DNA of 35,711 bases from a virus (IMGVR_UViG_3300033143_002040:1-35711); one strand, 5' to 3'. Positions 678 through 17,571 are shown, numbered from the stretch's first letter. A program made the numbers and translations. The notes: generated by a model from the letters alone, not told the origin.

Positions 678-678
678 T

Positions 679-1422
679 ATGTCTTCTTATACTAAATATG
701 GTCGCTATAATCCAGCAGTATCGCAGATAGAATCATTAGCGAGAAAACTGTTTAACGGCGCAAATAACTCAATTGCAAAATTAATCCTCCAAAAAATGGA
801 ACCTGAGGAGATAATGAAGCACCTTGAAGGTGTGAAGTTGTCAGATGATTTGAAAACCCAAATTTTAATGACGTTCCCAAAAATGCACAAAATGATTGAT
901 GTTAATTCGCTTGACGCCGATCAACGTGTAATTCTTCTTTGCACTCGTCCTACGGTTGCGGCTCTGAAAAAGTTTGATGTGAATGCTGACGATCTTAAGT
1001 TGCGTCAGTATCGCTACCTACTGCAAGTCGGCGGCAGAAAAATCATGCAGTTTGTATATGACAATATATCAGACGAAAAAATTGCACTTTTTGGAGTTGA
1101 CGAATGGAGACATTTGTTAGCGTCTTGCAGAAATTCAGCACGGAGACTTAAGATTACGTATATTCGTAATCCTTCAGACTTACGAAATCTTGTTTTAGCC
1201 AAGCCATATGTCATGTATCATCAAACTGTTGAAGATATGCAAAACAGTGTGATTGATGCACCTACGTGGATTCGTATTATTACAAAAATGAAAGTAAAAG
1301 ATCGCGGACACATTCCAAAAGGATTTAAGGAGTGGGTGGGACGCGATGTTTTCAAGCAAAAGCTTACTGGACGCAAGTTCAAAAGTTTTTCACCTAACTG
1401 GGCAAACGGGTTGCAAGAATGA
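679..1422 (+). CDS. Hypothetical protein carrying the FKxKLxG motif (VFKQKLTG)
   Basis: 247-aa ORF with GAGG SD, tightly packed with its neighbours. Confidence 0.75.
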   Translation: MSSYTKYGRYNPAVSQIESLARKLFNGANNSIAKLILQKMEPEEIMKHLEGVKLSDDLKTQILMTFPKMHKMIDVNSLDADQRVILLCTRPTVAALKKFDVNADDLKLRQYRYLLQVGGRKIMQFVYDNISDEKIALFGVDEWRHLLASCRNSARRLKITYIRNPSDLRNLVLAKPYVMYHQTVEDMQNSVIDAPTWIRIITKMKVKDRGHIPKGFKEWVGRDVFKQKLTGRKFKSFSPNWANGLQE

Positions 1423-1850
1423 TTGCAGGACAGTTTAATTCTCCAAGAACGTTTAATTGGATGACAAATGATGAGCAAATGACGATCCACCTTCTCTTTA
1501 TACAGGAGGTGGATTTTATGCACTCAGACACAGAAACACACACATATGTCCTTGCTCCAGGATATGTTCAACAAGATGTTGGTTGGGCACAGCAGGACGA
1601 TATATCATTAGATTTACTCATTGATCTGGACGAACTGAATGACACGCCGCTTCCCTTCGGACAGATCATGTTCTTTTCTTATTATGAAGCAGGTGAATTC
1701 ATAATCGAAAGTGCAACAGCAGATTTCAACACGCATAAAGCTGTATTAGCATTCGAATCATTCGGTTACAAGGGCGCAAGCTTGCTAGCAAATTATATGC
1801 GTGTCTCAGAGCAAGATAAATTCAAACTTATGCTGAAATTCGGCTATTGA
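1419..1850 (+). CDS. Hypothetical protein with C-terminal KFKLMLKFG
   Basis: 143-aa ORF with an ATGA overlap with the upstream gene. Confidence 0.7.
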   Translation: MIAGQFNSPRTFNWMTNDEQMTIHLLFIQEVDFMHSDTETHTYVLAPGYVQQDVGWAQQDDISLDLLIDLDELNDTPLPFGQIMFFSYYEAGEFIIESATADFNTHKAVLAFESFGYKGASLLANYMRVSEQDKFKLMLKFGY

Positions 1851-1875
1851 CTCACGAAAATAATTAGCGTATAAT
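1847..1875 (+). promoter_or_regulatory. sigma70-type promoter, probably giving a leaderless mRNA
   Basis: TTGACT-N17-TATAAT. The ATG at 1882 is 6 nt after the -10 box and has no SD. Confidence 0.8.
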
Positions 1876-1881
1876 AGTGAT

Positions 1882-2427
1882 ATGGCAAACGAAACTCAGG
1901 AAATCGCAGAAATAATTGAAGAGGTTGTCGAAGCACCTCTTCCAGTAGAAACTGTTCCAATAGAAGAACTACCTGTTGAAGCTGTAGTGGATGTTATACA
2001 CCCACTTTGGGATGGATACTTAACTGTATTAGATTTCTTCCTTCCTATGCTGCTAGTGATTGGCGGATACATAGTTTTACGTCATTTAATATGGGGTTCT
2101 CTGAAATTCAATTATCATCACTATCTCCAATATGGTGAATTCGTATTGTGTTGGGGTGATGATGACAATGACCACGAAAAGAAAGAACGTAGATTAAAAA
2201 TAGCAAAAGAACATAAATGCGAAGCAGATTTTGTATCTTGGTTTGCAGCATTACTAATGTCAGCAGTTGTATTGTTTTTATTTGCTATAATTGCAATCTC
2301 TTGGCCTGTCACCGTAATACTTGTATTACCACTTATGGTTGTTCGTGGAATCGGATATCGTAAGAGAAAGAAAATTGAATTCACGCAGAAGCTAAAAGGT
2401 GAACATCTTGCTAAGGAACAAGCATGA
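1882..2427 (+). CDS. Membrane protein (about 3 TM helices) with C-terminal EFTQKLKG
   Basis: Hydrophobic stretches FFLPMLLVIGGYIVL and FAALLMSAVVLFLFAIIAISWPVTVILVLPLMVV. Confidence 0.75.
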   Translation: MANETQEIAEIIEEVVEAPLPVETVPIEELPVEAVVDVIHPLWDGYLTVLDFFLPMLLVIGGYIVLRHLIWGSLKFNYHHYLQYGEFVLCWGDDDNDHEKKERRLKIAKEHKCEADFVSWFAALLMSAVVLFLFAIIAISWPVTVILVLPLMVVRGIGYRKRKKIEFTQKLKGEHLAKEQA

Positions 2428-2786
2428 ATCTATTTAAACGATTCACAAGCGAGCCTGAACTATCTAAGAAAGAATTGGCTGATGCACTTGCATTCAAGAA
2501 CATACTTAAATATGGCGATGATGTAAACGCTATGTATGAAGCTGCATGTGATAAATCACATGAAGCATACGAAGAAAAAAAACTTGTATCGAAGAAGCTT
2601 GAAAAAATATACAAGTTTAAAAAACGCAAATTATATAACAACTGGACAAGCTTTAATATTTCTCTGTTTAAAGAATGTTCAAAGTCTCCGATAGGACATT
2701 GCCTATATGTATCGTATTATGGGGACAAAAGTCCTGAAAAAGATGATCCGACATATTGTGTAGCTTGTAAGAAGAAAATGTTTTGA
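2424..2786 (+). CDS. Hypothetical protein with C-terminal Cys4 zinc-finger-like module
   Basis: CSKSPIGHC...CVAC; ATGA overlap with the upstream gene. Confidence 0.7.
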   Translation: MNLFKRFTSEPELSKKELADALAFKNILKYGDDVNAMYEAACDKSHEAYEEKKLVSKKLEKIYKFKKRKLYNNWTSFNISLFKECSKSPIGHCLYVSYYGDKSPEKDDPTYCVACKKKMF

Positions 2787-3409
2787 AAATTGGATTCTAC
2801 TTTAGAACGAGAAATGAATACTGTGAGGTGTTCAATTATGTTCGGGCGTTAAATGACGAAACTAGAAAGATACCTAAGTTTCGTAATAAATTCTTATTGC
2901 GTGTTCATACGCGATACTTAGCTGATGACCAAAATTGGGATTCTAAGATTCCAAAAGAGCGCAAAGGTAAAAAGAAGTATATCGGGATAATTCATGGCAA
3001 TAAACATTTAATGAAAATGTGCGATGTTCATCCAGAAGAATTTTTAAAAGCATTAGGGCTAGAGCTTGTGCCGAAGGTTGCTGGCAAATCAAAGTACGTC
3101 GGCGAAAAAACAACTCATCCGATGATACTCAAAACACACAAAGAATTCAAAACTATTACATCTGTATTCAATAAGCGATACGGACATGGATGTTGGCGTA
3201 TACAAGGTCCAAAAAAGCTACAACACATATTACGACAAATTGAGCCACTACAGCATGTCGCAACTAATCAATTTACATTTAGTTTTGGCGATCACGAAAA
3301 AGATATGTATATGAAAAAGTATCCTGAAGGGGTTCCTGTTACGATAATCGTTAACGAATCTGATGCAGATGTTGCCAAACAATTATTCAAAGTGGTGTTG
3401 AAAGGATGA
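2783..3409 (+). CDS. Hypothetical protein ending LFKVVLKG
   Basis: 208-aa ORF with a TTG start overlapping the upstream stop. Confidence 0.7.
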   Translation: MKIGFYFRTRNEYCEVFNYVRALNDETRKIPKFRNKFLLRVHTRYLADDQNWDSKIPKERKGKKKYIGIIHGNKHLMKMCDVHPEEFLKALGLELVPKVAGKSKYVGEKTTHPMILKTHKEFKTITSVFNKRYGHGCWRIQGPKKLQHILRQIEPLQHVATNQFTFSFGDHEKDMYMKKYPEGVPVTIIVNESDADVAKQLFKVVLKG

Positions 3410-3849
3410 CTGAGTGGAACAGAATTTATGCTCGCGTAAAGATCAGTGGTTCTGATGGATTTACGTTCGTAACTATACCTAATGTTACGTGGCCTGAGGA
3501 TGAAGCGGAAAAATTCATCAAGAAACTTATGCCAAAAGAAAAACACGATAATGAATTTGCAATGAAACGTGCGATAGTTGATCCAATATCAGCTTTACGC
3601 ATGTACTTGTGCGCAACAATGTCATCTACATTTTGCATAGGTCGAGGATCTCTTGATCGACAATCAGTATTTTATGTCGGAGCAAGGCGTCCACAAGATA
3701 TATTCAAACTTCTACTTAAAATTCCTGACGCAACCAAAGTAACTGTGTGGGAATCAGGCATGAACTTTACAGTTCGGGTTGCAGAGAATGATGATTACGA
3801 CCCAGAGAAATTTAAGCGCGGCAACATACAACAAGGATGGACTTCATAA
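3406..3849 (+). CDS. Hypothetical protein
   Basis: 147-aa ORF with an ATGA overlap. Confidence 0.7.
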   Translation: MTEWNRIYARVKISGSDGFTFVTIPNVTWPEDEAEKFIKKLMPKEKHDNEFAMKRAIVDPISALRMYLCATMSSTFCIGRGSLDRQSVFYVGARRPQDIFKLLLKIPDATKVTVWESGMNFTVRVAENDDYDPEKFKRGNIQQGWTS

Positions 3850-4307
3850 TGTTTATAGTAGAAAATGGTAACTTGTTCGGAAACGTTGAGCATGGATTAA
3901 TCATACACGGCTGCAATGCGCAAGGCGTTATGGGATCAGGGGTTGCGAAGATTATACGGGACAAGTATCCTGTCGCATATCAAACGTATATGCAGCAAGC
4001 AGATACAGGATATATTCTCGGCGAAGTTATTCCTGCGATTGTTGAACCAAACCTTGTTATTGTGAATGCAATCACGCAAGAATTCTATGGAACGGATCGT
4101 GTGCATGTTGACTACGATGCCGTTAGACAAGTGATGAAGGGTGTTGAACATCTTGCAAAGTCTCAACTAATTAAAAGTGAGGATGTTCATTTTCCTTTGA
4201 TCGGTGGCGGGCTTGCAGGTGGCGATCAATTCAAATTGATACAAATTTTTAGTGAAGCTTGGAGCAACAGCGACATAACTGCTAGACTTTGGCTATATAA
4301 TCCTTAA
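3849..4307 (+). CDS. Macrodomain (ADP-ribose-binding/hydrolase, Poa1p-like) protein
   Basis: IIHGCNAQGVMGSGVAKIIRDKYP, IVNAITQ and FPLIGGGLAGG are macrodomain signatures. Start taken at the TAATG overlap (ORF track starts at 3837). Confidence 0.9.
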   Translation: MFIVENGNLFGNVEHGLIIHGCNAQGVMGSGVAKIIRDKYPVAYQTYMQQADTGYILGEVIPAIVEPNLVIVNAITQEFYGTDRVHVDYDAVRQVMKGVEHLAKSQLIKSEDVHFPLIGGGLAGGDQFKLIQIFSEAWSNSDITARLWLYNP

Positions 4308-4308
4308 A

Positions 4309-4334
4309 AATCAACGACTTATAACTCATTGATT
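4309..4334. promoter_or_regulatory. Two back-to-back inverted IHF-consensus sites (imperfect 26-bp palindrome)
   Basis: AATCAACGACTTA on + and AATCAATGAGTTA on - both match WATCAANNNNTTR. Confidence 0.5.
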
Positions 4335-4379
4335 CTCAAATCATAGTGTAACCTTTTGTTTCCTAACGGAATTTAGCTA

Positions 4380-4408
4380 TTGACATAGTGGAAAAATGTC
4401 AGTATAAT
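4380..4408 (+). promoter_or_regulatory. Perfect-consensus sigma70 promoter
   Basis: TTGACA-N17-TATAAT. Confidence 0.9.
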
Positions 4409-4439
4409 TATACTTGAGAATTAGGAATAGGACAAAACA

Positions 4440-4760
4440 ATGGCAAAGCGATATTTACAAATACGAGAACATAAGAACTTGAACATGTACGATTTTGACG
4501 GTTCTCTTGATTCAGTTGCTATGTTTATCAACGATCTTAAGCGTGAATATGGCGAAGATGCTGTCCTTGATTTTTCATATAATTTCGATGATGTTGAGGT
4601 CACGATTGCTTGGAATCGTCAGGAGACGGATCTTGAGCGTGACAAGCGACTCACGAAGGCGCGTAAGGCTCGTGGTGCGAAGAAAATTGCGAAGGCTGCA
4701 ACGGAAGAAGCAGAACGCGCAGAACTCGCACGTTTGCAAGCCAAGTACGCAGCGGAGTAA
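4440..4760 (+). CDS. Hypothetical protein
   Basis: 106-aa ORF with an AGGA SD, directly downstream of the promoter. Confidence 0.75.
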   Translation: MAKRYLQIREHKNLNMYDFDGSLDSVAMFINDLKREYGEDAVLDFSYNFDDVEVTIAWNRQETDLERDKRLTKARKARGAKKIAKAATEEAERAELARLQAKYAAE

Positions 4761-4764
4761 CAGC

Positions 4765-5139
4765 ATGATTCTCGCAGACTTTCTTAACACGATCAAAACA
4801 GCACCAATCGAAAAGTTTGGTGTTGTTTATCATGGTGCTGATCGCAAAACATGCATCGGTGTTAAGATGATTGCAAGCGGTGATTATGGTTCGATTCGCA
4901 ATATTAGTTTGCAGAAAGTTTTAGACGAGGCGTACAGACTCGGTGCTAAAGCAATGACTCTTGTACACAATCATCCTGGGACTGAGCAAGACAAACTACG
5001 TCCAAGTGAAGCTGATTTAGTTACGACTTACGCTATTCACGATGCTGGAAAGGCAAACGGAATTCCAGTTTTGAATCACATTATTTACGGTGCTGACAAC
5101 AGCGCATTTTCTTTCATTCACAATGGAATACATATCTAA
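4765..5139 (+). CDS. RadC-like JAB/MPN domain protein
   Basis: PIEKFGVV (catalytic E), VHNHP, PSEAD and VLNHII match the RadC JAB motif E...HNHP...PSxxD. Start set at ATG 4765; the track's upstream extension overlaps the previous gene. Confidence 0.85.
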   Translation: MILADFLNTIKTAPIEKFGVVYHGADRKTCIGVKMIASGDYGSIRNISLQKVLDEAYRLGAKAMTLVHNHPGTEQDKLRPSEADLVTTYAIHDAGKANGIPVLNHIIYGADNSAFSFIHNGIHI

Positions 5140-5528
5140 TGGCCAAGCGAACGAAAGTGAAACAGATTGTTACGCGGGATACGATTCGTACAATGCTTCG
5201 TAATCCTAATCCTCGCTACGTCGAAGTTGTTGTAGGTCGTGCGCTAGTCGCATTACTGCAACGTCAGACAGCAGACGAGCAACGTGCAAACGATACTCGC
5301 GAACACAACGGTGTCGGTTTCAGTGGTTGCGATGGTCGCAGCGGGACGCTTACTGCAAAGTCGTTTATAAAGAACGGTGGCTTGCTGGACTGGCAGATTG
5401 CAAGGTGGACGAAGCCCCAAAAGAATGGTTATCCTCGTTTGGCGAAGTATGCCAAGCAATTGAACGAAATCGCATTGGAGAAAGCAGCATTAAGGATCTC
5501 GCAAAGCGAGTTTTCACCGACACATTAA
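5139..5528 (+). CDS. Hypothetical protein
   Basis: 129-aa ORF with a TAATG overlap. Confidence 0.75.
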   Translation: MAKRTKVKQIVTRDTIRTMLRNPNPRYVEVVVGRALVALLQRQTADEQRANDTREHNGVGFSGCDGRSGTLTAKSFIKNGGLLDWQIARWTKPQKNGYPRLAKYAKQLNEIALEKAALRISQSEFSPTH

Positions 5529-5547
5529 AAGGCAAACGAATATTATA

Positions 5548-5754
5548 ATGAAAAACAAATTCGGAAACTCAACCTATTTGTTCACGCGCAAGTACAAGCG
5601 ACGAGGATCATTTGGTATGAGAATTAAACGAGCATGGACAGTAACACAAGGATCCGTTGCTGTAGACCACTTTGAGTTGAGTTGCCCTGGATATGAACTT
5701 ACTTCCGAGGGTCCAGTTATTATTGGCAAACGCAAAAACGAGGTTGTAGAATGA
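5548..5754 (+). CDS. Hypothetical protein
   Basis: 68-aa ORF that fills the gap in operon order. Confidence 0.55.
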   Translation: MKNKFGNSTYLFTRKYKRRGSFGMRIKRAWTVTQGSVAVDHFELSCPGYELTSEGPVIIGKRKNEVVE

Positions 5755-5861
5755 ACTGGTTCGGCATAGCAATATTTTTCTTAGTCGTTATATTTCCTTC
5801 GGTTGTATGGACGTTAGCTTTTTACAGTGCAATCGCTGGAAGACTTCCGTGGCAGAAATGA
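5751..5861 (+). CDS. Small single-pass membrane protein (36 aa; not in the ORF track)
   Basis: MNWFGIAIFFLVVIFPSVVWTLAFYSAIAGRLPWQK; ATGA overlaps at both ends; GAGG SD. Confidence 0.65.
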   Translation: MNWFGIAIFFLVVIFPSVVWTLAFYSAIAGRLPWQK

Positions 5862-6139
5862 GGTTGCTGACAATGCGTAACTATGTTATACTGCTAATAT
5901 TGATCGCACTGACTGGGTGCGCAAGTACACAAGAAGTGGTCAATACGATACCGAGTGCGGCTGGCACGATAGCAGCAGCAGCAATTTTTGGCGGTGAAGT
6001 TAGTATGAATCCTGATCCTGTTGACTACATCAAGCAAGACATTAACAGAGAAGGACGCATTATATATGGCGATGTACGACGCAATACCAAAGATATTATC
6101 GCCAATAGTATTAGGAAATTGTTTGAACCAACTAAATAA
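5858..6139 (+). CDS. Putative lipoprotein
   Basis: Signal peptide with lipobox: MRNYVILLILIALTG-C. Start at 5858 or 5873. Confidence 0.65.
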   Translation: MRLLTMRNYVILLILIALTGCASTQEVVNTIPSAAGTIAAAAIFGGEVSMNPDPVDYIKQDINREGRIIYGDVRRNTKDIIANSIRKLFEPTK

Positions 6140-6166
6140 TAATGTGTATATAATAAAAAGGAAGAT

Positions 6167-6481
6167 ATGGACAACGAGCGTACTAGAGAATTGGATTTTA
6201 TGATGAGAACTGGAGTTCCGATTCCAGTTACAGATTCACGCGCAGAGGAAAGGTTCCAAACAATATACTACGACGATTTCTACACAGTTTCAGAATTGGT
6301 CGAAGAAGGTCACATAGAATATGTCGGGCATCAAAAGGAATATGTTTGCTTACGACCGATGTCTAATTTTAAGGTATATATTGCAGGCGATGTGCGAGAA
6401 TTGCAAAGTGGCGAGATAGTAACAATGTCGCTAACTGAGAACGGGCGGGACGAATTTAATACGTGGCTTGATGCACAATAG
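6167..6481 (+). CDS. Hypothetical protein
   Basis: 104-aa ORF with an AAGGA SD. Confidence 0.7.
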   Translation: MDNERTRELDFMMRTGVPIPVTDSRAEERFQTIYYDDFYTVSELVEEGHIEYVGHQKEYVCLRPMSNFKVYIAGDVRELQSGEIVTMSLTENGRDEFNTWLDAQ

Positions 6482-6518
6482 CAAGCTAATTTGACACATA
6501 TACAGAAGGATTCAAAAC

Positions 6519-6761
6519 GTGACTGAGCATATCCTAGCGCAGGTAAAGGAAGATGTCGAATTTCTGTTGGAGTTCATGCCAGCAAAAGATCCATCGCAAG
6601 TCGCAGAAGGGCTCGCGTCTATGTTTTATGTTACTGGAACATACGAAGGTGACGTAAAACTTGCAGGACGAGTGCGGGACATTCGTGAACGATATGAAAT
6701 CGTTGCACAGAATGATGAGGAAGAAGATTTTGGAGAAGCTGGTAATTTACCTGATAAATAA
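6519..6761 (+). CDS. Hypothetical protein
   Basis: 80-aa acidic ORF with a GTG start and AAGGA SD. Confidence 0.65.
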   Translation: MTEHILAQVKEDVEFLLEFMPAKDPSQVAEGLASMFYVTGTYEGDVKLAGRVRDIRERYEIVAQNDEEEDFGEAGNLPDK

Positions 6762-6811
6762 TTTATCATTGAACAATACCTGTATTTCAAAACAACGTAT
6801 TTAATTTTCGT

Positions 6812-6819
6812 GATAAATA
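6812..6819 (+). promoter_or_regulatory. T4-late-like promoter box GATAAATA
   Basis: Intergenic, upstream of the 6847 gene; the same octamer recurs before other genes. Confidence 0.55.
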
Positions 6820-6846
6820 AATGTATACTTAACTAAGGATACATTT

Positions 6847-7371
6847 ATGAACGACGAAGATTTTGAGCAATTTATTACGCTCCTCGACGCTGCAATCGCA
6901 AGCGACGATCCCAAAATACAAAAAGCATTGAAGAAATTCGTATTTCTTATCAGACTAAACCTGTCTGACGAGGATTGCAAGCCAGGCCCATTTACTAAAA
7001 TGATGGAAACTATTGACGACCTACAACGTAGAGTCGCAGCAGTCGAAGGTCAAGGGCAAACATGGCCGCAAGCACAGCCATATCTCGGTAGTGGTGGAAC
7101 TTCTGTAGACCCATTTACACACTGGTACAATAACGGCACAAACACATTTACTGCTACTAATGCAGTATCAGCGGTGACTATTCCAGCGACAACTGCCACT
7201 ACAACAGGCAGCGTTACATTATCAGGCGGAACATCTTGCACAGGCTTTGCGGGTAATACACATCCAGGAAACACAACTACATTCACTTCTCCTATATATG
7301 AAGTAGATTCTGGTTCGAAAATCAAGGATGACATCAAGGCCAAACTTACGCAACTTGCAAAAGCAGCGTAA
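6847..7371 (+). CDS. Hypothetical protein with a Thr/Gly-rich low-complexity segment
   Basis: 174-aa ORF with a TAAGGA SD. Confidence 0.75.
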   Translation: MNDEDFEQFITLLDAAIASDDPKIQKALKKFVFLIRLNLSDEDCKPGPFTKMMETIDDLQRRVAAVEGQGQTWPQAQPYLGSGGTSVDPFTHWYNNGTNTFTATNAVSAVTIPATTATTTGSVTLSGGTSCTGFAGNTHPGNTTTFTSPIYEVDSGSKIKDDIKAKLTQLAKAA

Positions 7372-7381
7372 AGGTGCTATA

Positions 7382-7843
7382 ATGGATGATACGAAGGAAT
7401 GCTTAACGTGCGAGGAAGAAAAACCCCTTACGGATTTTTACACCCTCAAAAATAAAAGCAGGATGACAGCACAATTATCTTCGTATTGTAGACTATGTTC
7501 AAGAATAAGAGCATACACAGTTAAGCGTGAATTAACTGATAACAATTTTCAGAAATTATGGGAATATTTTACAAAAAATCCTTGCGTAGACTGCGGAGAA
7601 GATAACCCCATTGTATTGAGTCTAGATCACATTAGGCCAGGAAAATCTGCAAGCATAAGTGATTTATGTGGCAGAGTTGACTGGAGCAAAGTTGAAAATG
7701 AATTAACTTTATGCGAATCTCGATGTCATAATTGTCACGCAATAAAAACAGCAGCAAGCAGAGACCACTACAAAACAGAAGAATTACGAACATATTTGAA
7801 TAAGTGGGAATTAAATGAGCAAGCTTATGAGGAGTATAAGTAG
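7382..7843 (+). CDS. HNH endonuclease with zinc ribbons
   Basis: CLTC...CRLC, then CVDCG...LSLDHI...CESRCHNCHAIKT. The track start at 7328 overlaps the upstream gene. Confidence 0.8.
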   Translation: MDDTKECLTCEEEKPLTDFYTLKNKSRMTAQLSSYCRLCSRIRAYTVKRELTDNNFQKLWEYFTKNPCVDCGEDNPIVLSLDHIRPGKSASISDLCGRVDWSKVENELTLCESRCHNCHAIKTAASRDHYKTEELRTYLNKWELNEQAYEEYK

Positions 7844-8148
7844 TGGATCATCCATTTATTGATGCTAGAGAACTGACAAGCGAAGAATTGCAGCAACGCA
7901 TACAAAAATTGCAAAATATTTTGTATAAAGAAACAACGTTTGGTCATGCTGGTATGGTAGATAGTATACGGGATCAACTTATCGTTTACGAACAAGAATT
8001 TTCAGAACGTATATACTTGCAACGGGTCGAGGAGTTTGAAAAGAAATTTCCTGATGAAACTATTGAAATAGGAGTCATTGAGACAATAGAAAAAGTGGAT
8101 CCCGATGCAAATATTGAGATTCCAGTGAAAAGGCAAAAAGATTTATAA
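7843..8148 (+). CDS. Hypothetical coiled-coil protein
   Basis: 101-aa ORF with a GTG start and GAGGAG SD. Confidence 0.7.
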   Translation: MDHPFIDARELTSEELQQRIQKLQNILYKETTFGHAGMVDSIRDQLIVYEQEFSERIYLQRVEEFEKKFPDETIEIGVIETIEKVDPDANIEIPVKRQKDL

Positions 8149-9340: not shown

Positions 9341-9786
9341 TGGCTAAACGAACATATAGAAGCGCGAAAGGCAAAGTCGTAGACATGGAAGCTATGCGTG
9401 TCGCGAATGAAAAGACAATTGCTGCAGGCAATATGAAAGTCAATGCAAAGGGTGATCGTATTGAGGGCGGGAAAGTTGTACAAACTGCTAAAGAACGTGT
9501 AAAGCCAAGCTATACAACAGTTACACAGACCGCAAAAGTGAGTATGAAAAAGCCACTATCTAGATCAGATGCAGACGAAGTTTCTCCTAAGCCAAAGAAA
9601 GCACATGAGCCTATGAAAGCTGAAATGACTACAGAAACAGTCAAAAAACGCGACGACGGATCACAATATATAGAAGTGATTAGTCCTGATGGTGATATTG
9701 AAGTAAAAGATGTTGATCCGAAACCAGACAAAAAGAAAACAGTTAAAAAGAAAACAGCTAAAAAGACTAAACGACCACTCGTATGA
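9340..9786 (+). CDS. Hypothetical basic protein
   Basis: 148-aa Lys-rich ORF with a TAATG overlap. Confidence 0.75.
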   Translation: MAKRTYRSAKGKVVDMEAMRVANEKTIAAGNMKVNAKGDRIEGGKVVQTAKERVKPSYTTVTQTAKVSMKKPLSRSDADEVSPKPKKAHEPMKAEMTTETVKKRDDGSQYIEVISPDGDIEVKDVDPKPDKKKTVKKKTAKKTKRPLV

Positions 9787-10046
9787 CTACAGAAGAATTA
9801 GAAAGTAAAGAAGCGTTTGTAAAACGTTTAGACGGCACATTCGAGAAATTCGAGTCAATTGTATTAATGCGTGACGATTTATACAAGATGCAAGAAATGG
9901 TTGAACGTATGGAAACTTCAGGTTTGCGGCGCGAAACAATAGTCTTGCTACTACACGACCACACAAAACTCCCAAAGGGAACAATCAAAAAAGTATTAAA
10001 TGGACTCAAAGAGATTCCACTAAAATACTTTAAGGAAGAAAAATAA
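9783..10046 (+). CDS. Hypothetical protein
   Basis: 87-aa ORF. Confidence 0.7.
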   Translation: MTTEELESKEAFVKRLDGTFEKFESIVLMRDDLYKMQEMVERMETSGLRRETIVLLLHDHTKLPKGTIKKVLNGLKEIPLKYFKEEK

Positions 10047-10168
10047 TGAGTAACTCAGAAGTACAACAAGAAGGTAACGTATTTTATGTTGATACTGGCG
10101 ATCTATCTGTAGAAGAAATTAAAACTTTCCTCAAAGAATTTGCCAAAACACGCAAGGAAGAAAAATGA
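10046..10168 (+). CDS. 40-aa mini-protein with a portal-like FYVDTGD motif (not in the ORF track)
   Basis: MSNSEVQQEGNVFYVDTGDLSVEEIKTFLKEFAKTRKEEK; TAATG and ATGA overlaps; AAGGA SD. Confidence 0.7.
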   Translation: MSNSEVQQEGNVFYVDTGDLSVEEIKTFLKEFAKTRKEEK

Positions 10169-10494
10169 AACTCCGCGCACTAACTAATAAAATTTTATGC
10201 AACTATATTGAAAAGGGCCAGCAAACAACCGTAGGCGGAATCGTTCTTATGGATGATGATAACAGTGAAAGTGGTATACGCCCTCGATGGATGCAAGTAT
10301 ATTCAGTTGGTCCCGAAGTAAAAAGTGTTACTGAAGGACAGTGGGTTATGGTAGAACACGGTCGTTGGACACATGGCATGACAATGCGTGACGAAAACGA
10401 TGAAGAATTTACTTTGTGGGGTGCAGAAGAGGAAGCAATTCTCTTAGTAGCCGACGAAGAACCTAACACAGAGAGATCCGTATCTTCTGCTTGA
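10165..10494 (+). CDS. groES: Co-chaperonin GroES (Cpn10)
   Basis: MKLRALTNKIL...TTVGGIVL (mobile loop)...VYSVGPEVKSVTEGQWV...EEEAILLV. Confidence 0.85.
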   Translation: MKLRALTNKILCNYIEKGQQTTVGGIVLMDDDNSESGIRPRWMQVYSVGPEVKSVTEGQWVMVEHGRWTHGMTMRDENDEEFTLWGAEEEAILLVADEEPNTERSVSSA

Positions 10495-10519
10495 CGCTCA
10501 ATCGGCATTGTGTTATAAT
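10491..10519 (+). promoter_or_regulatory. sigma70-type promoter
   Basis: TTGACG-N17-TATAAT upstream of the clamp loader gene. Confidence 0.8.
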
Positions 10520-10551
10520 GTCCTAATGAATGAAAATAATAAGGGCATAAA

Positions 10552-11475
10552 ATGAAAGAACTCTGGGTAGAAAAATACCGACCAACAAAAATAAGCGAGT
10601 ACGTGTTTCGTGACGCAGCACAAAAAACACAAGTACAAAATTGGATTGATAGCAATGCGATTCCGCATCTATTATTTAGTGGTGGGCCAGGAACAGGCAA
10701 AACTACTCTTGCGAAACTATTACTGAACGAACTCGGTGTTGATGGCGGTGACGTATTATTCATAAACGCATCTTCGGAAACAGGCGTAGGTAATATGCGC
10801 GAGCGTATTTATAACTTTGCAACGCTAATGCCCTACGGAGATTTTCGTTATGTGCTACTTGACGAAGCAGATTATCTGTCACGAAACGCACAAGGAGCAT
10901 TGCGCGGGGTCATGGAGCAGTTTAGCAACTCTTGTAGATTCATACTAACATGTAACTTTTCGTATAAAATTATCGAAGCAGTTCATAGTAGGTGTCAAGG
11001 TTTTCATATTGAGAAACTTGATAAGGTTGAGTTTACTGCGCGAGTCGCAGAGATACTTATAACTGAAGGGGTCGAAGTAGACTTAGAAACACTTGATTTA
11101 TACGTAGCAGCAGAATATCCCGACTTACGCAAATGCATTAATTTGTGCCAGCAGAATTCACAGTCAGGCGCACTCGTAAAACCTCACAGTGAGGATTTAG
11201 GTTCGGCCGACTACAAAGTAGAAATGATTGCATTATTTCGTGATGGCAAAATTGCAGAAGCAAGAAAACTTATTTGTAAGAACGCGGCTGCAAGCGAATA
11301 CGAGGCAATATATCGTCACATGTACGAAAATTTAGAGTACTGGGGTGATGACATAGAGATACAGAAACGTGCTGTGATTGTGATTCGTAATGCACTTGTA
11401 AATCATATAGCGATTGCAGATGCAGAAATAAACTTATCTGCATGTTGTATTGAACTAGAATTATTGAGAATGTAA
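10552..11475 (+). CDS. Clamp loader small subunit (RFC/T4 gp44-like AAA+)
   Basis: LWVEKYRP, Walker A GGPGTGKTT, Walker B LLDEAD, FILTCN and SRC motifs. Confidence 0.93.
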   Translation: MKELWVEKYRPTKISEYVFRDAAQKTQVQNWIDSNAIPHLLFSGGPGTGKTTLAKLLLNELGVDGGDVLFINASSETGVGNMRERIYNFATLMPYGDFRYVLLDEADYLSRNAQGALRGVMEQFSNSCRFILTCNFSYKIIEAVHSRCQGFHIEKLDKVEFTARVAEILITEGVEVDLETLDLYVAAEYPDLRKCINLCQQNSQSGALVKPHSEDLGSADYKVEMIALFRDGKIAEARKLICKNAAASEYEAIYRHMYENLEYWGDDIEIQKRAVIVIRNALVNHIAIADAEINLSACCIELELLRM

Positions 11476-11476
11476 A

Positions 11477-11749
11477 ATGACAAAATATAATTGGGATGAA
11501 ATTTGTGAACTTAGGGATAATCTAGAGAAATACTATAGTCTTGAGTATGATAGTCACACAGAAGCAATGGAAGCACTATGTCGGCTATCACAATATCCTG
11601 ACTATATATCAGAAGAACTCTGGGATGCTGTAGTAATTGCAATGAAAAGTGAATTAAAAAATTACACAGAAAATTCAAAAATTATAACAACACCTATAAT
11701 GATTGCAAAAAACCTTGTCGAACTTGAATGGAACCATGAAAATATTTAA
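11477..11749 (+). CDS. Hypothetical protein
   Basis: 90-aa ORF. Confidence 0.7.
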   Translation: MTKYNWDEICELRDNLEKYYSLEYDSHTEAMEALCRLSQYPDYISEELWDAVVIAMKSELKNYTENSKIITTPIMIAKNLVELEWNHENI

Positions 11750-12089
11750 ATGGAAATTGCCCAAACCGTATGACTCAAGAGTTATTCCTGAGCATCCAGA
11801 AGATGAACCAGAGATTGAGTCTAGTGATCGTTTCGCTAAAAGTGCAACACCAAAGTATACACTTGACTGGTACGTAAAATGGATTGCTACAATAGTTGTC
11901 GTAGCTGCCGTGACTTCTAGAGCAACAGGAATTGAATCATTACGTATTTTTGATTTATGGGGCAGCTTGATCGGTGCAAGTTTATGGTGGTGGGTATCTT
12001 TCGTTTGGCGTGATCGTGCATTGATGGTAGTAAATGGTGTCCTTGGATTTATAGTGATGATCGGATTGATGAACTATTACTTCGGATGA
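11736..12089 (+). CDS. Small membrane protein (about 3 TM) with N-terminal IFKWKL
   Basis: Hydrophobic segments after LDWYVKW. Start set at ATG 11736. Confidence 0.7.
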   Translation: MKIFKWKLPKPYDSRVIPEHPEDEPEIESSDRFAKSATPKYTLDWYVKWIATIVVVAAVTSRATGIESLRIFDLWGSLIGASLWWWVSFVWRDRALMVVNGVLGFIVMIGLMNYYFG

Positions 12090-12388
12090 GATATACACTA
12101 AAATATATAACACGTAATATGTTTTATTATCCTTGCGATTTTGGTGCTTATAACGATTTCGGAATTGGCCAAAATCCAAGTGGATCGTATTTAGTATTGC
12201 ATTTAACAACAAGGCTAGCAGATGCATTGTTCTATGATACACCCGAAGAAGCTGAGTGCTTATCAGAATTTAATGTTGTGCATTCTGAGTCAGCAGATGA
12301 ATTTACTGAGCCAGATTACGGATCGTTTGAATTATTGGGTGTTATAGAAGTTTCTGAAAAGAAAATATTTAAGTTGAAATTAAAATGA
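12086..12388 (+). CDS. Hypothetical protein ending [11 protein letters not shown]
   Basis: 100-aa ORF with ATGA overlaps at both ends. Confidence 0.7.
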
Positions 12389-13026
12389 ATTGGACTGATT
12401 TGGAATTTTTCAAAGGCGGTGACAAAGTTGTTGCTGACAAACTTGCAGAAGATATTAATGCAGGCAAGTCTATCTGTCCGCCTATTCATCAAATCATGCG
12501 CGCCCTTGACATTACACATTTCGAAGATGTCAAGGTTGTTATTCTAGGCCAAGATCCTTATCCAACTGCAGGTCATGCTAATGGTCTTGCGTTTTCAGTT
12601 AACGCTTGTGTGCAACCATTACCAAAATCATTAAAAAATATTTATAAAGAACTAGAAGATGATTTAGGATACAAGCGGGCAAGCGGCAGTTTACGTGATT
12701 GGGCAGAACAAGGGGTACTATTATTAAACACTGTATTGACTGTTGAAGAAGGTTGTGCAGGCTCACATCAAGGAATAGGATGGGAAACACTGACAGATGA
12801 AGCGATACAGATGTTGAGCGACAAACGAGAAAATATTGTATTTATTCTCTGGGGCAAAAAAGCACAAACGAAAATTCCACTGATAAATAAAAACAAACAC
12901 CGCATTATTACTTCTCCACATCCGTCTCCACTATCTGCTTATCGAGGATTTTTCGGAAGTAAGCCGTTTAGTCAGGCAAACGATTATTTGTATAAAAATC
13001 GTAAAGTGGTAATTGATTGGCGTTAG
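12385..13026 (+). CDS. ung: Uracil-DNA glycosylase family 1
   Basis: [22 protein letters not shown] and [13 protein letters not shown] motifs. Confidence 0.97.
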
Positions 13027-13029
13027 TGC

Positions 13030-13058
13030 TTGACAAATAAACGGTTGTACGCTATACT
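13030..13058 (+). promoter_or_regulatory. sigma70-type promoter
   Basis: TTGACA-N17-TATACT. Confidence 0.85.
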
Positions 13059-13082
13059 GTTAAACTAATTAAAGGAATCTCA

Positions 13083-13436
13083 ATGAGCAGCAAAGGTGCT
13101 TATCTAATTTTAACGCATGTCCATCAGCCCATCAACAAGGGTCCAGATAAGGGCAAAATGCAAACACACGAAACTTGTGAATTTGTAGATCGCTATAAAA
13201 CTAAGCATTTGCAAGGCTCTACGATTATTATGGATGTAGTAAAACGCGAATTCATAAAGAACACATACAGGCAAGACGGCCTCTCATATGACCAAGTTGA
13301 GGAGCATGTAATTAAAGGTTATGCTGACAAATATACAAAATTTTTAGAGCTTGTGGGAGCACCGATTCCAGAAGCTTTACTTCTAGATAAAGAAGATATG
13401 GAAAAACTAATTGAACAAACCAAGGAAGAAGAATGA
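13083..13436 (+). CDS. Hypothetical protein
   Basis: 117-aa ORF with an AAGGA SD, downstream of the promoter. Confidence 0.75.
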   Translation: MSSKGAYLILTHVHQPINKGPDKGKMQTHETCEFVDRYKTKHLQGSTIIMDVVKREFIKNTYRQDGLSYDQVEEHVIKGYADKYTKFLELVGAPIPEALLLDKEDMEKLIEQTKEEE

Positions 13437-14518
13437 CAAAAGAAATAGATGACCTAAAAGAGCTACAAGAACTTACTAAAGACAACGATGAAACAGAAGT
13501 TGGTGAGTCTGATAGTCGTAGTTTTGCTACGCCAGACCCAACTTATGATGAGTATGAATGTGCAGAAGAAGAAGAAGGTACGCTAAAGGAAAACGCCCGA
13601 CAATGGGCAAAGGTCGGTGATGCTTATTTTCCAGCAGATATGACCGCAGATACTCTTCCTTCAGGTCAATACAGCATTGATTATTCTCACAGCAGAGGAC
13701 TATATTTTTCTCCAAAACCAATTAATCTTGATGATTTGCTTATTTTGCCCGATAGCGCGTCAGAAGAAATAATCAATAATATTGAAGAATTCTGGAAGAA
13801 TGAACACCTGTTCCGCAAACTTGGATTTCTATGGAAGCGCGGAGTATTGCTTTACGGTCCAGCGGGAAGTGGCAAAACTTCTACTCTACAGCTAATTACA
13901 AAGAAAGTTGTTGATCGAGGCGGCATCGCAGTTTACGTTAAAGAGCCAAAAGTAACAGCGCAAGGCCTAGAAATGTTACGTAAAATTGAACCTACTCGTC
14001 CAGTAATTGTATTGGTTGAAGATGTAGACGCAATTCAACGAACCTACGGCGAAGCAGATATGCTTGCATTGCTTGATGGTGATTTGCAAATTGACAACGT
14101 AGTATTCATTGCTACAACAAACTATCCTGAAAAGCTTGATAAGCGCATGGTCAATCGTCCAAGTCGTTTTGATATTGTACGCAAAATTGGAATGCCTACA
14201 GCAGAGGCACGTACAATTTATCTAACAGAACGAAACGAACGCATTGCAGGCACAGATGAACTTATTGAGTGGGTCGCTGCAACAGATAAATTCTCTATTG
14301 CACATCTTAAAGAACTTATTGTTTCTGTAGAAGCATTGGGGCAAGGGTTTAATGATACGATTGACAGACTACGAGTTATGATTGATACAACACCTGCTAG
14401 TACAGATGATGATGAATCAAAAGGCATAGGCTTTATGGCAGGTGCTGAAAAAAAGTCAGAAAGGGCGGCGACGACGGCGGCAAAGCCATCAACCCCGCCA
14501 GTCTCAAACAACTCATAA
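13433..14518 (+). CDS. Single-domain AAA+ ATPase (classic AAA, BCS1-like Walker B)
   Basis: KRGVLLYGPAGSGKT, VLVEDVD and the second region of homology ATTNYPEKLDKRMVNRPSRFD. No protease domain. Confidence 0.9.
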   Translation: MTKEIDDLKELQELTKDNDETEVGESDSRSFATPDPTYDEYECAEEEEGTLKENARQWAKVGDAYFPADMTADTLPSGQYSIDYSHSRGLYFSPKPINLDDLLILPDSASEEIINNIEEFWKNEHLFRKLGFLWKRGVLLYGPAGSGKTSTLQLITKKVVDRGGIAVYVKEPKVTAQGLEMLRKIEPTRPVIVLVEDVDAIQRTYGEADMLALLDGDLQIDNVVFIATTNYPEKLDKRMVNRPSRFDIVRKIGMPTAEARTIYLTERNERIAGTDELIEWVAATDKFSIAHLKELIVSVEALGQGFNDTIDRLRVMIDTTPASTDDDESKGIGFMAGAEKKSERAATTAAKPSTPPVSNNS

Positions 14519-14552
14519 AGAAATACGGCTTACGCCCGCCGAAAAAGAAACG

Positions 14553-15158
14553 ATGAATGATAAAATTATATTAACTGATGCAGATGGATGTTTATTCAAC
14601 TGGAACAATACGTTTAATGAATTTATGATTAATCGTGGATACAAAATTGTGCCAGGTGAGGAGGAAAATTATTCTGTTAGGGAACGATTTGGTTTGTCTC
14701 CTGGAACTAAAATGAATTTCATCAAAGAATTTAATCACTCAAATCGAATTGCCGAATTGCCTCCACTCGCAGATGCACAAGAATATGTTGCTAAACTGAA
14801 CAATGAAGGCTATAAGTTTATTGTAATTACAAGTCTCAGTGAAAAGCCTAGCGCATATGACTACAGAATGCATAATCTTAAAGAACACTTTGGTGATGCA
14901 ATCATAGGTTTACATTGCTTACGAATCGGCGTACATAAAGGTGAAAAATTAAAAGAGTGGGAAGGCACTGATATGTTTTGGATCGAAGATCACGTATCCA
15001 ACGCAGTTGCAGGCGCGAAGCTTGGACTTCGTGCGGTAGTCATCGACCACGTATACAATACACGATATTGCGAAGACGATCACTTACTTTATGCTCGCAC
15101 AACACAAGAAACACCTTGGGCAGATATTTACGAACTTGTTAAAGGGGCAGAAGAATGA
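14553..15158 (+). CDS. HAD-family 5'(3')-deoxyribonucleotidase-like phosphatase
   Basis: ILTDADGCL (DxD motif I), VITS (motif II), K and WIED. Start moved from 14442 to ATG 14553. Confidence 0.85.
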   Translation: MNDKIILTDADGCLFNWNNTFNEFMINRGYKIVPGEEENYSVRERFGLSPGTKMNFIKEFNHSNRIAELPPLADAQEYVAKLNNEGYKFIVITSLSEKPSAYDYRMHNLKEHFGDAIIGLHCLRIGVHKGEKLKEWEGTDMFWIEDHVSNAVAGAKLGLRAVVIDHVYNTRYCEDDHLLYARTTQETPWADIYELVKGAEE

Positions 15159-15406
15159 TACAAAATGGCATATTAAAAGTCGGAGATATAGTTCTTTACA
15201 AACGAAAAAAGAAAATTAAAGAATGGGAAATCAACGCCATTTCTCCATCTGGAGACTATATTGAAATAGAAAATGATGATTGGGATGAACGCTGGGTTTA
15301 TCTCGGCAACCTTCTTGAAATTATAGAAAGCAATGAAAACGAAGTTGAAATTACTATTTCTACTGTCAGTCAGCGGCCGCCAGTTATAGCTTCTAAATTT
15401 ACATAA
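15155..15406 (+). CDS. Hypothetical protein
   Basis: 83-aa ORF with an ATGA overlap. Confidence 0.65.
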   Translation: MIQNGILKVGDIVLYKRKKKIKEWEINAISPSGDYIEIENDDWDERWVYLGNLLEIIESNENEVEITISTVSQRPPVIASKFT

Positions 15407-15636
15407 TGAAATTTGAAACGGACGAATATAACATCCTAAAAATGAATATCTGGTTGCAGGAGCATCTAGAAACTTGTGCGTACTGGCAACCTAACGATCA
15501 CGGCATTCTTCCCCAAGGTGCGAACGGCGGAGCAATTACATATTTGTTCACGCCAACTAATATGGGATTAGTTGTAGAAGTGCAATGCTGCTGCGGCCAG
15601 AAAACTAACATAACAAACTATGATGAATGGCAATGA
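15406..15636 (+). CDS. Hypothetical protein
   Basis: 76-aa ORF with a TAATG overlap. Confidence 0.65.
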   Translation: MKFETDEYNILKMNIWLQEHLETCAYWQPNDHGILPQGANGGAITYLFTPTNMGLVVEVQCCCGQKTNITNYDEWQ

Positions 15637-16022
15637 ATCAGGATGATTTTGATAAGGCATATTTTAAAGCCAAGCTTGCAGGAATAGAAGCTTTAGGCGA
15701 ATTACTCTTACAACTCATGGGAACTGGCGAAGACCGCTTTGCCATGCAACTATTCCAACTCCATAATAAAGAATATGCTTCGATGCTGAATAATGATGCA
15801 GTATCAAAAGATCGAGTTTGTGAAAAATCTCCGTATCATTATTGTTTTTCAGTTCCGATGAGTAAAAACATAGAACACATAAATCCAGATTCTTTTTTTT
15901 GTATTTGGTGCAGTAAAATATATAGTGTAGATTTAACTAAACCTGAACGAGAATTTATCGAGGGTGGGCGAGTAGTTGGTTCACACAAACTATTACTAGG
16001 TATAGTCAGCGGAAAGAAATAA
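15627..16022 (+). CDS. Hypothetical protein with N-terminal YFKAKLAG and a Cys4 module
   Basis: CEKSPYHYC...CIWC. Confidence 0.7.
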
Positions 16023-16023
16023 C

Positions 16024-17133
16024 ATGAGAATCGAAGATTCAGTAAAACTAGATTACAGTGATGTATTGATACGTCCTAAGCGAAGCACATTAGTATCACG
16101 TAAAGAAGTAGATTTAGAACGTGAATTTGTTTTCCGTTATTCAGATGTAAAATATAAAGGCATCCCGATCATGGCTGCTAATATGGATACAACAGGCACA
16201 TTCGAAATGGCTCGCGCACTACTTAATTTTAATATGTTTACGTGCATACATAAACACTATGATATGAGTGGTTGGCGTGAGGGGCTTGTACTTGATACTG
16301 GAGCCGATCCTAGTGTTAAAAACTTAGCTATTTCAACTGGCATATCTAATACTGATTTTCTAAAAACAGTAGATATTATCTATGCATTTACAGAGATAAA
16401 CTATATCTGTGTTGACGTTGCTAATGGTTACACAGAAACATTTGTACAATTTATTCGTAAAATGCGCAAGAAATTTCCCAATAAAGTAATCATTGCAGGT
16501 AATGTAGTCACAGCAGATATGACAGAGGCACTTATATTGGCAGGTGCTGACATAGTGAAGGTGGGCATAGGCCCAGGAAGTGTCTGTACAACACGCAAGA
16601 AAACAGGCGTCGGCTATCCTCAACTATCAGCAGTTATTGAGTGTGCAGATGCAGCACACGGATTGAAAGGTCTTATTGTTGCAGATGGTGGGTGTACTGG
16701 CCCTGGTGATGTTGCAAAATCGTTTGCAGCAGGCGCAGATTTTGTAATGCTCGGCGGAATGTTAGCAGGCCACGCTGAAGGCGGCGGCTCAATTATATCA
16801 GGCTCAGGAAGGAAACTTGGCAGCGACACAGCACTCGATACTTACGACTTGGGCTACGGAGATATGTTTGTAGAGTTTTACGGTATGAGTTCTGAAACTG
16901 CACAGAACAAACATGGAGACGGACTTACAGGCTATCGTGCAAGCGAAGGCAAGCGTGTTTTGATTCCTTACAAAGGTAAAGTTGAAAATACTGTGAAAGA
17001 TATACTAGGCGGGGTTCGATCAGCATGTACATATACTGGCAGCATATCACTCAAGGAATTGTCAAAGCGTACAACGTTTGTTCGCGTCAACAATCAGCTT
17101 AATAATGTCTATGGTACAAATAGTGATGGATAG
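16024..17133 (+). CDS. guaC: GMP reductase
   Basis: [53 protein letters not shown] and YRASEGK match proteobacterial-type GuaC. Confidence 0.95.
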
Positions 17134-17338
17134 CTGTGCTTTATGGGGTTGTGAGCGATGTTTAACAACATATTTAATGTTTGAACCAGAAGACCACACT
17201 AACGGGCGTGGTGTATGTGAAAATTGCAAAAGCATTCAATGGGGCATATGGAACACAAACATATCGAAACAAGAATATTTCAAAAGCAAATTAACTGGTG
17301 AATACTTAAACGTAGTAAAATTAGAGCGCATAGGATAA
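17126..17338 (+). CDS. Small zinc-ribbon protein with EYFKSKLTG
   Basis: CERC...CENC. Start set at ATG 17126. Confidence 0.65.
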
Positions 17339-17571
17339 TGACTAATATGTTTGAAATAAGATGCCTCGGCAAAATGGATTGCCACAATCACTTTTTAATA
17401 AAGGCAAGTAGGATAGGCGAGCCAGTAGAGCAACCAAATTGTGAAGTATGTGGCAATAATAATTGGGATATGCGAGAAACAACAATGCCTGAAAAAGAAT
17501 ACTTCAAACGCATGTTAAAAGATCCTCACGGAACAATCGGCTATCATGTCATACATGAAGATTTGGTATAA
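17338..17571 (+). CDS. Small zinc-ribbon protein with EKEYFKRMLKD
   Basis: CLGKMDC...CEVC; TAATG overlap. Confidence 0.65.
   Translation: MTNMFEIRCLGKMDCHNHFLIKASRIGEPVEQPNCEVCGNNNWDMRETTMPEKEYFKRMLKDPHGTIGYHVIHEDLV

Follow-up and report, generated by a model that had tools for sequence, protein, structure and literature searches.

The stretch of DNA analyzed here, IMGVR_UViG_3300033143_002040:1-35711 (below, the window), comprises the first 35.7 kb (35,711 nucleotides) of a 126.5-kb single-contig virus record (G000) whose completeness is estimated at 35%. Over the contigs considered here, the IMG/VR (CheckV) estimates of completeness range from 35 to 44%. Among cultured phages, the nearest relative is PA5oct, a jumbo phage of Pseudomonas; the ClpA-like proteins of the two share 51.5% identity. 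Between 1 and 17.5 kb, the window is occupied by small orphan genes interspersed with genes for a clamp-loader subunit, an AAA protein, a UDG-superfamily protein, a Macro domain, a RadC/JAB domain, and a GMP reductase; the window also contains genes for DnaJ-like and ClpA-like proteins, the latter (23157-25481) having a Clp_N domain. An earlier reading made from the nucleotide sequence by itself, hereafter the sequence-only reading, had singled out a short peptide with the core FK.[KM]L on about nine of the proteins encoded in this region. Through randomization controls, profile searches, and comparisons of orthologues, we found that this motif is real and under selection.

All nine quoted peptides are present, lie in frame with plausible open reading frames, and sit within a few nucleotides of where they had been placed. 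The enrichment claimed for the motif was borne out: the strict pattern FK.[KM]L occurs seven times in the 5,697 aa encoded by region 1-17,571, versus a mean of 0.14 after shuffling within proteins, and the remainder of the genome holds seven more, versus 0.67 in shuffles. The post hoc choice of pattern was controlled for by counting all gapped words of the form ab.cd. With 5 copies in the early region and 12 in the entire proteome, FK.KL ranks first among such words in both, and any ab.cd word reached such counts in just 0.3% of 300 early-region shuffles and in none of 60 proteome shuffles. An iterated 12-column hidden Markov model (HMM) retrieved 23 to 28 copies from the proteome and none from reversed or shuffled proteomes; by reading frame, it gave 24 matches in coding frames (42 k aa) versus 4 in off-frames (123 k aa). 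An independent HMM, trained solely on 16 out-of-window copies, recovered six window copies at our threshold of 5 bits or more, versus 0.10 expected (in proteins 17338, 17078, 15627, 12086, 679, and 9783, named by their start coordinates). The motif thus stands far above shuffled proteomes, and it is kept among orthologues; the sequence-only reading had listed the opposite of each as an outcome that would count against it. As it had also claimed, the synonymous codons of F, K, L, E, and G vary at the motif and are used about as they are in the genome, with a mild excess of A at third positions. Since the synonymous codons vary, selection acts on the protein.

The copies scoring at least 5 bits are confined to three blocks of small plus-strand genes (0.7-17.5, 41.9-76, and 107.7-116.3 kb). 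This agrees with the earlier statement that none occur in the late/structural half: we counted 24 copies versus 0 in late/structural-gene blocks of equal residue number. The proposed terminal bias also emerged clearly, with 24 of 28 copies lying within ~20 residues of a terminus (14 no more than 5 aa from the C terminus, 6 at 6 to 20 aa, and 4 N terminal) and the other 4 being internal.

An IMG/VR search at the DNA level for the pattern KEYFKKKLxG matched a single contig, which became our key relative (G001; 119 kb, syntenic, median protein identity of 61%) and which contains 11 to 17 copies, versus 0 to 1 in shuffles. Copies are also present in the contigs L213-L217, L221, and L223. PA5oct displays no enrichment (1 match versus 0 to 1 in shuffles), no match was found in 80 IMG/VR loci around GMP reductase (272,608 aa) or in 80 loci around clamp loaders of ~60% identity (419,343 aa), and the motif is not enriched in the relative contigs G002, G003, G005, and G006. 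Given this lack of enrichment in PA5oct, the 160 IMG/VR loci (692 k aa in all), and the four relative contigs, the motif is restricted to a single narrow lineage of uncultured jumbo-type phages related to PA5oct.

Architecture of the motif and its copies in the window

In the column statistics of the motif, each cluster of protein bodies was weighted once, and positions were numbered from the invariant F as 0. The full signature reads [hydrophobic]-[ST]-[DE]-K-E-[LYIV]-F-K-x-[KR]-L-K-G, in which F and L form the fixed hydrophobic pair. Information content is limited to positions -4 to +6; Ser or Thr is favored at -5 and a hydrophobic residue at -6, and a weak hydrophobic pattern is discernible at -6 and -8/-9. 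Read against the established rules of helix capping, the motif would be a complete short helix of 11 to 12 residues: a hydrophobic staple would link -6 and -1, S/T would serve as the N-cap, Glu at -2 as the capping box, and Gly as the C-cap, with acidic residues toward the N-terminal end and basic ones toward the C-terminal end. Of the "amphipathic basic helix" proposed earlier, the short helix is supported, but it is not a clean amphipathic helix of the membrane type, because the conserved K/R at +3 falls inside the ~140-degree arc formed by the hydrophobic positions -1, 0, and +4. Across 17 orthologous or paralogous pairs, the motif is 60% identical and the remainder of the protein 37%; all of these pairs retain F, and L is missing only from two weak copies.

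The copies in the window and the related features are as follows.

1336..1371, plus strand: copy VGRDVFKQKLTG, residues 220-231 of the 247-aa protein 679-1422; 8.2 bits with the independent HMM
1806..1841, plus strand: divergent copy SEQDKFKLMLKF(GY*), at the C terminus of 1419-1850; 11.2 bits with the iterated HMM but missed by the independent one
2374..2400, plus strand: weak copy IEFTQKLKG, in the cytoplasmic tail past the last membrane helix of 1882-2427; 2.1 bits with the independent HMM
2478..2516, plus strand: copy ADALAFKNILKYG, near the N terminus of 2424-2786; low HMM scores of 3.8 to 4.1; missed by the sequence-only reading
3380..3406, plus strand: weak copy QLFKVVLKG*, at the C terminus of 2783-3409; -1.2 bits with the independent HMM
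3688..3723, plus strand: copy RPQDIFKLLLKI, internal in 3406-3849; 9.7 bits with the iterated HMM; likewise missed
9801..9836, plus strand: copy ESKEAFVKRLDG, at the N terminus of 9783-10046; 7.3 bits with the independent HMM; likewise missed
11736..11762, plus strand: MKIFKWKLP, at the N terminus of the DUF6552 membrane protein, whose true start is probably the ATG at 11736; -0.4 bits with the independent HMM
12086..12388, plus strand: member of Family A, an unnamed family of ~80 aa (MKY...LSxAxxFD..EEA...TDKELFKARLKG); profile positions 1-77 of 79, E = 1.9e-17
12353-12385, plus strand: motif in the Family A member 12086-12388, which is a full-length Family A match
15648..15683, plus strand: N-terminal copy in 15627-16022, which has a helical N-terminal part followed by a Cys-rich C-terminal part; 9.2 bits with the independent HMM
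17264..17299, plus strand: copy past the second CxxC knuckle of the Zn-ribbon protein 17078-17338; 10.4 bits with the independent HMM
17488..17523, plus strand: copy PEKEYFKRMLKD, past the CxxC knuckle of the Zn-ribbon protein 17338-17571; 10.7 bits with the independent HMM

The independent HMM recovered five of the nine copies listed originally; with it, IEFTQKLKG, MKIFKWKLP, QLFKVVLKG, and DKFKLMLKF (the last of which fell outside the 16 best matches, below -2.2 bits) are inseparable from chance. The original list was also incomplete, with at least three further copies present (9801-9836, 3688-3723, and 2478-2516). Three of the four weak copies are conserved in orthologues and may be divergent versions of the motif. 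Thus, the orthologues of 1419-1850 retain SE[QA]DKFKLMLK[YH]GY and DDKSAFKLKLKYGY, and those of 2783-3409 have KQLFKAVL[KE]G* and KHLFKVKLKV*. In 1882-2427, a transmembrane segment is predicted at 113-159, and close relatives keep the tail [EST]-F-T-Q-K-L-K-G, which reads QVFVDKIKD in G001. The fourth, MKIFKWKLP, is probably a chance resemblance, since the basic position is lost in the L216 counterpart (MKIFKWELPK) and the more distant DUF6552 homologues lack such an N terminus; the protein itself (11703) matches the Pfam DUF6552 model with an E value of 6e-13. The copies attached to membrane bodies are the weak ones.

Several of the remaining copies are also conserved. In the 679 protein, R-D-[VI]-F-K-x-[KQ]-L-x-G-R-[KR]-F-K is kept in 16 homologues (49 to 87% identity). 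The orthologues of 2424-2786 have AFKNKLKYG, with AFKARLKYG in G001, and the G001 orthologue of the 3406-3849 copy, SQKDIFKLKLKF, scores 13.6 bits, with L221 and L223 also conserving it. More generally, the copies of 679, 1419, 2783, 3406, 1882, and 2424 are all retained in L221 and L223, which are closer relatives. The copy in 9783-10046 is maintained across five contigs (ESKEAFVKRLDG, ESPEAFKKRLDG, and ESKDAFVKRLDG), four lineage metagenome contigs keeping this N-terminal copy, and the L214 orthologue of 15627-16022 retains FNKLYFKAKLGG despite an overall identity of 39%. The 9783-10046 protein (87 aa) is apparently all helical and, at 84 to 93% identity over five contigs, is better conserved than any other small protein of the lineage; its sole match, a weak one, is to an antidote-type helix-turn-helix family.

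Upstream of the position that corresponds to the window start, the relatives L221 (1-6175) and L223 (1-4780) encode an FtsH-like AAA+/M41 protease, RNase T, ClpP, and MazG. With the DnaJ-like and ClpA-like genes of the window, these make up a full proteostasis set in the lineage; G001 and PA5oct have ClpP as well.

Family A and the bodies of the other bearers

The protein encoded at 12086-12388 is the one bearer in the window that belongs to a recognizable larger family, which we call Family A. Its seed consists of 12086, five further proteins of the same virus record (108-115 kb), and four G001 proteins. A search of 1.84 billion proteins added 42 unnamed metagenomic relatives of 50 to 104 aa, nearly all matched end to end, and a profile of 79 positions was built from 50 sequences, with the consensus MKYVI...LSxAxxFDTxEEA...EVTDKELFKARLKG. 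Full-length matches to this profile are restricted to 12086 and eight other proteins; every other bearer matches just its last 12 to 24 positions. Thus, 679, 9783, 15627, 17078, and 17338 align from positions 56/60/64/68/70 to 78/79 alone, with 17078 covering positions 60-79 and 17338 covering positions 56-78.

An AlphaFold2 model of 12086, based on an alignment of 48 sequences, was obtained with a mean predicted local distance difference test score (pLDDT) of 85.4 and a predicted template modeling score of 0.74. It has a beta3-alpha-beta-alpha fold with strands at 2-8, 13-23, 34-41, and 82-89 and helices at 53-60 and 91-99. Across the 48 sequences, whose mean column identity is 22%, the motif helix is the best-conserved segment, and F95 and L99 are the sole invariant columns. 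The motif is seen at its purest in this C-terminal helix. Fold searches with this model against the PDB (Foldseek), AFDB clusters, VIA wide, and the Atlas revealed no convincing known fold: the best match, with a Z score of 5.3, is a 70-residue chain of a type I-C CRISPR entry and lies under the noise level of the tool, and template modeling scores of 0.6 to 0.7 were attained to unnamed viral clusters only. Family A has no Pfam, PHROG, or NCBIfam model and no solved relative, and a word-index homologue search with 12086 returned just the self-match. Prediction of a two-copy complex gave a score of 0.02, which speaks neither for nor against self-association.

The slots at 11477-11749 and 12086-12388 flank the DUF6552 gene, between the clamp-loader gene and the UDG gene. 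These slots hold different genes in G000, G001, and L216, mostly of the Family A type, and from their gene content they look like hypervariable cassette positions.

The bodies that carry the motif outside Family A are diverse: they include Zn-ribbons, proteins that by eye appear all helical (9783 and g61184), a 250-aa protein, and tails that follow membrane helices. When the motif is cut out, phmmer comparisons sort 45 bearers, drawn from G000 and G001, into 29 clusters, and hhalign comparisons among three family alignments give a probability of ~0 without the motif; with it, just 11 to 13 columns align. The claim that the bearers are unrelated is thus correct to the extent that they share no profile outside the motif. 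The bodies are nonetheless not all unrelated, because 12086 is a full-length Family A member and 17078 and 17338 are probably tandem Zn-ribbon paralogues, having a CxxC layout in common although no significant similarity remains once the motif is removed; for 17338-17571, the ESM Atlas shows generic Zn-ribbon features only. That the hits might prove to be parts of one larger known domain holds for 12086 alone, and its domain is not a known one. Likewise, the description as a portable short linear motif is apt insofar as the element is portable, helical, and found at either terminus, but in Family A it is predicted to be an integral helix and not a free peptide.

Searches of the bearers against Pfam, PHROGs, NCBIfam, and PDB sequences found nothing that covers the motif. 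Matches to the bodies are confined to DUF6552 (11703) and to an N-terminal piece of Gp23 on the out-of-window protein g41928. The latter, a motif-bearing protein of 115 aa (G000 41928-42275), matches the T4-type Gp23 N terminus over its first 45 residues (PF07068, 30.7 bits, above the cutoff). Scans of IMG/VR turned up no relatives of either the 679 protein or 27126-28400, and searches of the literature for the motif strings and for motifs common to early phage proteins yielded nothing pertinent. A second C-terminal motif common to several proteins, approximately K-H-K-M-L-R-E-A-Y-K-K-Y-K-F-L-E-E-L-x-G, is present on three otherwise different G001 proteins (L001 2654-2923, 3353-3724, and 5727-6125, all on the minus strand) and on one G000 protein (46289-46708).

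Possible roles and partners of the helix

Because the helix is both the sole shared part and the best-conserved part of each protein, it could plausibly act as a common handle for one partner, a role that we favor tentatively from these sequence comparisons. Under this proposal, a self-contained capped helix would have been placed at an end of 25 to 30 small accessory proteins within one lineage, the helix that closes the Family A fold also being placed, with or without a preceding strand, on other bodies. The helix would offer one basic surface to a single lineage- or host-specific partner, and the variable bodies would supply differing activities or targets. A more ambitious version, in which the helix is a lineage-specific address code whose one receptor, a phage or host hub, sorts, assembles, times, or destroys a set of ~30 early or accessory proteins, strikes us as unlikely.

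Several observations weigh against the handle proposal. In the AlphaFold2 model, the motif is the closing C-terminal helix that follows strand 82-89, with the highest confidence of the entire model (pLDDT of ~97), and is predicted to be an integral element of the fold. The copy in the 679 protein sits within a conserved C-terminal block of ~40 residues. The polar conservation would be explained nearly in full by generic rules of helix stability, so a purely structural role also fits, and the case from conserved charges is weakened. Profile tests are low powered on fast-evolving proteins of 70 to 130 aa, and the "unrelated" bodies could therefore be homologues that have diverged beyond recognition. 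Several membrane-linked copies score weakly, and a search for partner candidates by phyletic pattern (genes shared with G001 and absent elsewhere) gave a list without a pointer and found no partner; the list includes the Macro domain, the RadC/JAB domain, the UDG-superfamily protein, and the conserved 5139-5528 protein.

It is accordingly quite possible, if somewhat doubtful, that the motif is purely a structural closing helix, with all or most bearers descending from one ancestral mini-protein or repeatedly reusing one beta-alpha unit without any common partner. The helix would then do no more than cover the hydrophobic side of a mini-domain, and the motif would be the part still recognizable once the bodies had diverged. 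Such an origin would account for the top confidence of the helix behind strand 82-89, for the matches of several non-Family-A bearers to the Family A HMM across strand and helix (positions 55-78), for the weak hydrophobic pattern at -6 and -8/-9, and for a polar conservation that appears to obey generic helix-dipole and capping rules. It sits poorly with the extreme N-terminal copies that are conserved in orthologues and with the copies right after membrane helices or on all-helical-looking proteins. Furthermore, the families bear distinct body signatures, with nil profile similarity once the motif is taken out, and it would be unusual for one helix to remain near-identical while the sheet against which it packs changes wholly. 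We consider it improbable that the element is instead a basic helix with a nonprotein target, attaching to the membrane surface or to nucleic acid and concentrating the small proteins there. The core is indeed net positive, with K/R at -3, +1, +3, and +5, and some copies directly follow membrane helices and a basic run; however, there are three hydrophobic residues only, and K/R fall inside their arc (at inferred angles of -100, -60, 0, and +40 degrees), unlike in membrane-targeting helices. Proteins already embedded in the membrane would have no need of such a helix, 11 residues with an acidic N-terminal end bind nucleic acid poorly, and the high confidence of the helix in Family A suggests that its hydrophobic residues are probably buried.

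Similarly improbable, in our view, is a degron or adaptor tag that is read by the phage ClpA-like unfoldase (with ClpP), DnaJ, or an FtsH-like protease and that times the turnover or folding of early proteins. Known Clp recognition signals occur at either terminus, as does this motif; the window encodes the ClpA-like and DnaJ-like proteins, and in relatives, genes for ClpP and an FtsH-like protease immediately precede the position of the window start. A ClpA/DnaJ tag had also been entertained in the sequence-only reading. Nevertheless, this idea is unsupported, given that the motif-free PA5oct carries DnaJ, ClpA, and ClpP: because PA5oct has the PhoH-DnaJ-ClpA block and ClpP with no enrichment of the motif, co-occurrence adds nothing to it. 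The 160 other IMG/VR loci, whose ClpA/ClpP content was not checked, are also motif free. The Family A model predicts a folded, packed helix and not a disordered tail, the motif often lies 6 to 20 residues from the end or is internal, and to our knowledge it bears no likeness to known classes of Clp signals. Chance, composition, or a feature of the DNA (a repeated word, overlap with a ribosome-binding site, or a recombination site) is exceedingly improbable and is largely refuted by the controls. The genome is rich in Lys and AT, many copies lie at gene ends that overlap the ribosome-binding site of the next gene, and there is the slight third-position excess of A. Against these stand the shuffle, reverse, off-frame, and any-word controls, all of which contradict chance, the use of all synonymous codons of F, K, L, and G roughly as genome-wide, the existence of N-terminal and internal copies, and the orthologue conservation at the protein level.

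A few more specific candidates were tried and rejected. A slippery frameshift site is contradicted by the presence of an A-run in three copies only, and ribosome-binding-site overlap fails for the N-terminal and internal copies. The motif does not resemble a membrane-targeting amphipathic helix of the MinD/FtsA type, in which an unbroken hydrophobic face of 4 to 6 residues has basic residues at its flanks, with just -1, 0, and +4 hydrophobic and, by the geometry deduced for the helix, K/R at +3 within their arc. A sliding-clamp-binding tail was rejected on the basis of the phage's own polymerase, whose tail differs and lacks K-x-[KR]-L-x-G: the family-B DNA polymerase (G000 35612-38566; 984 aa, 74% identical in G001) ends in acidic-aromatic ...ELMETLFDFS in both contigs, and with a tail reading ...LFDFS, clamp binding by the motif is unlikely. 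The polymerase tail itself looks like a clamp-binding tail of the T4 gp43 type.

With respect to the listed lineage-specific genes, the Macro domain (3837-4307), the RadC-like JAB domain (4495-5139), and the UDG-superfamily protein (12385-13026) have homologues in G001; searches of PA5oct and of the remaining contigs and loci yielded none. The 5139-5528 protein (129 aa, of no known family) is 84 to 91% identical in G001 and L221 and is the best-conserved lineage-specific protein without the motif.

Most small accessory genes of jumbo phages lack an explanation, and in the one lineage considered here, a large fraction of them share one short, strongly selected element. If this element is a handle, its partner would give a common logic to dozens of orphan genes, and the helix would furnish a portable 11-residue tag. 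If it were an address code, it would represent a protein-tagging system invented within one jumbo-phage clade, with a tag that can be moved to either end of its cargo. Even if the helix merely closes a fold, Family A would be an undescribed, widespread family of mini-proteins and would illustrate the reuse of one beta-alpha unit on many bodies. Under either a handle or a structural role, the motif can serve as a practical marker by which to recognize this lineage of uncultured phages.

Comparison with terminal peptides and adaptor boxes

Short terminal peptides for tethering or targeting are known from several systems, including the cargo-loading peptides of encapsulins, the capsid-targeting sequence of phage T4, and the ClpX-binding tail of SspB. 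Like these, the motif would be a short conserved terminal element on otherwise unrelated bodies, reminiscent of an address or handle. It differs from them in that its bearers are encoded among the small-gene and replication-gene blocks and not with capsid genes: cargo loading or capsid targeting would place the bearers with head genes, and none of the 24 copies lies in late/structural blocks, all being found among the small-gene and replication-gene blocks. It also differs in being a capped and probably packed helix and not a disordered tail, and in occurring at either end of its bearers, and there is no sequence likeness to the above peptides.

A different parallel is offered by the F-box-like boxes of the poxvirus ankyrin/PRANC proteins, domains of ~40 to 50 aa whose host partner is Skp1. 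The lineage-specific expansion of proteins with variable bodies and one constant terminal element, which in the poxviruses plugs into a hub, is comparable to the pattern that we observe, whereas the element here has 11 residues and the host is bacterial. On the basis of these comparisons, terminal targeting peptides and adaptor boxes appear to be the nearest functional concepts for the shared helix, by analogy.

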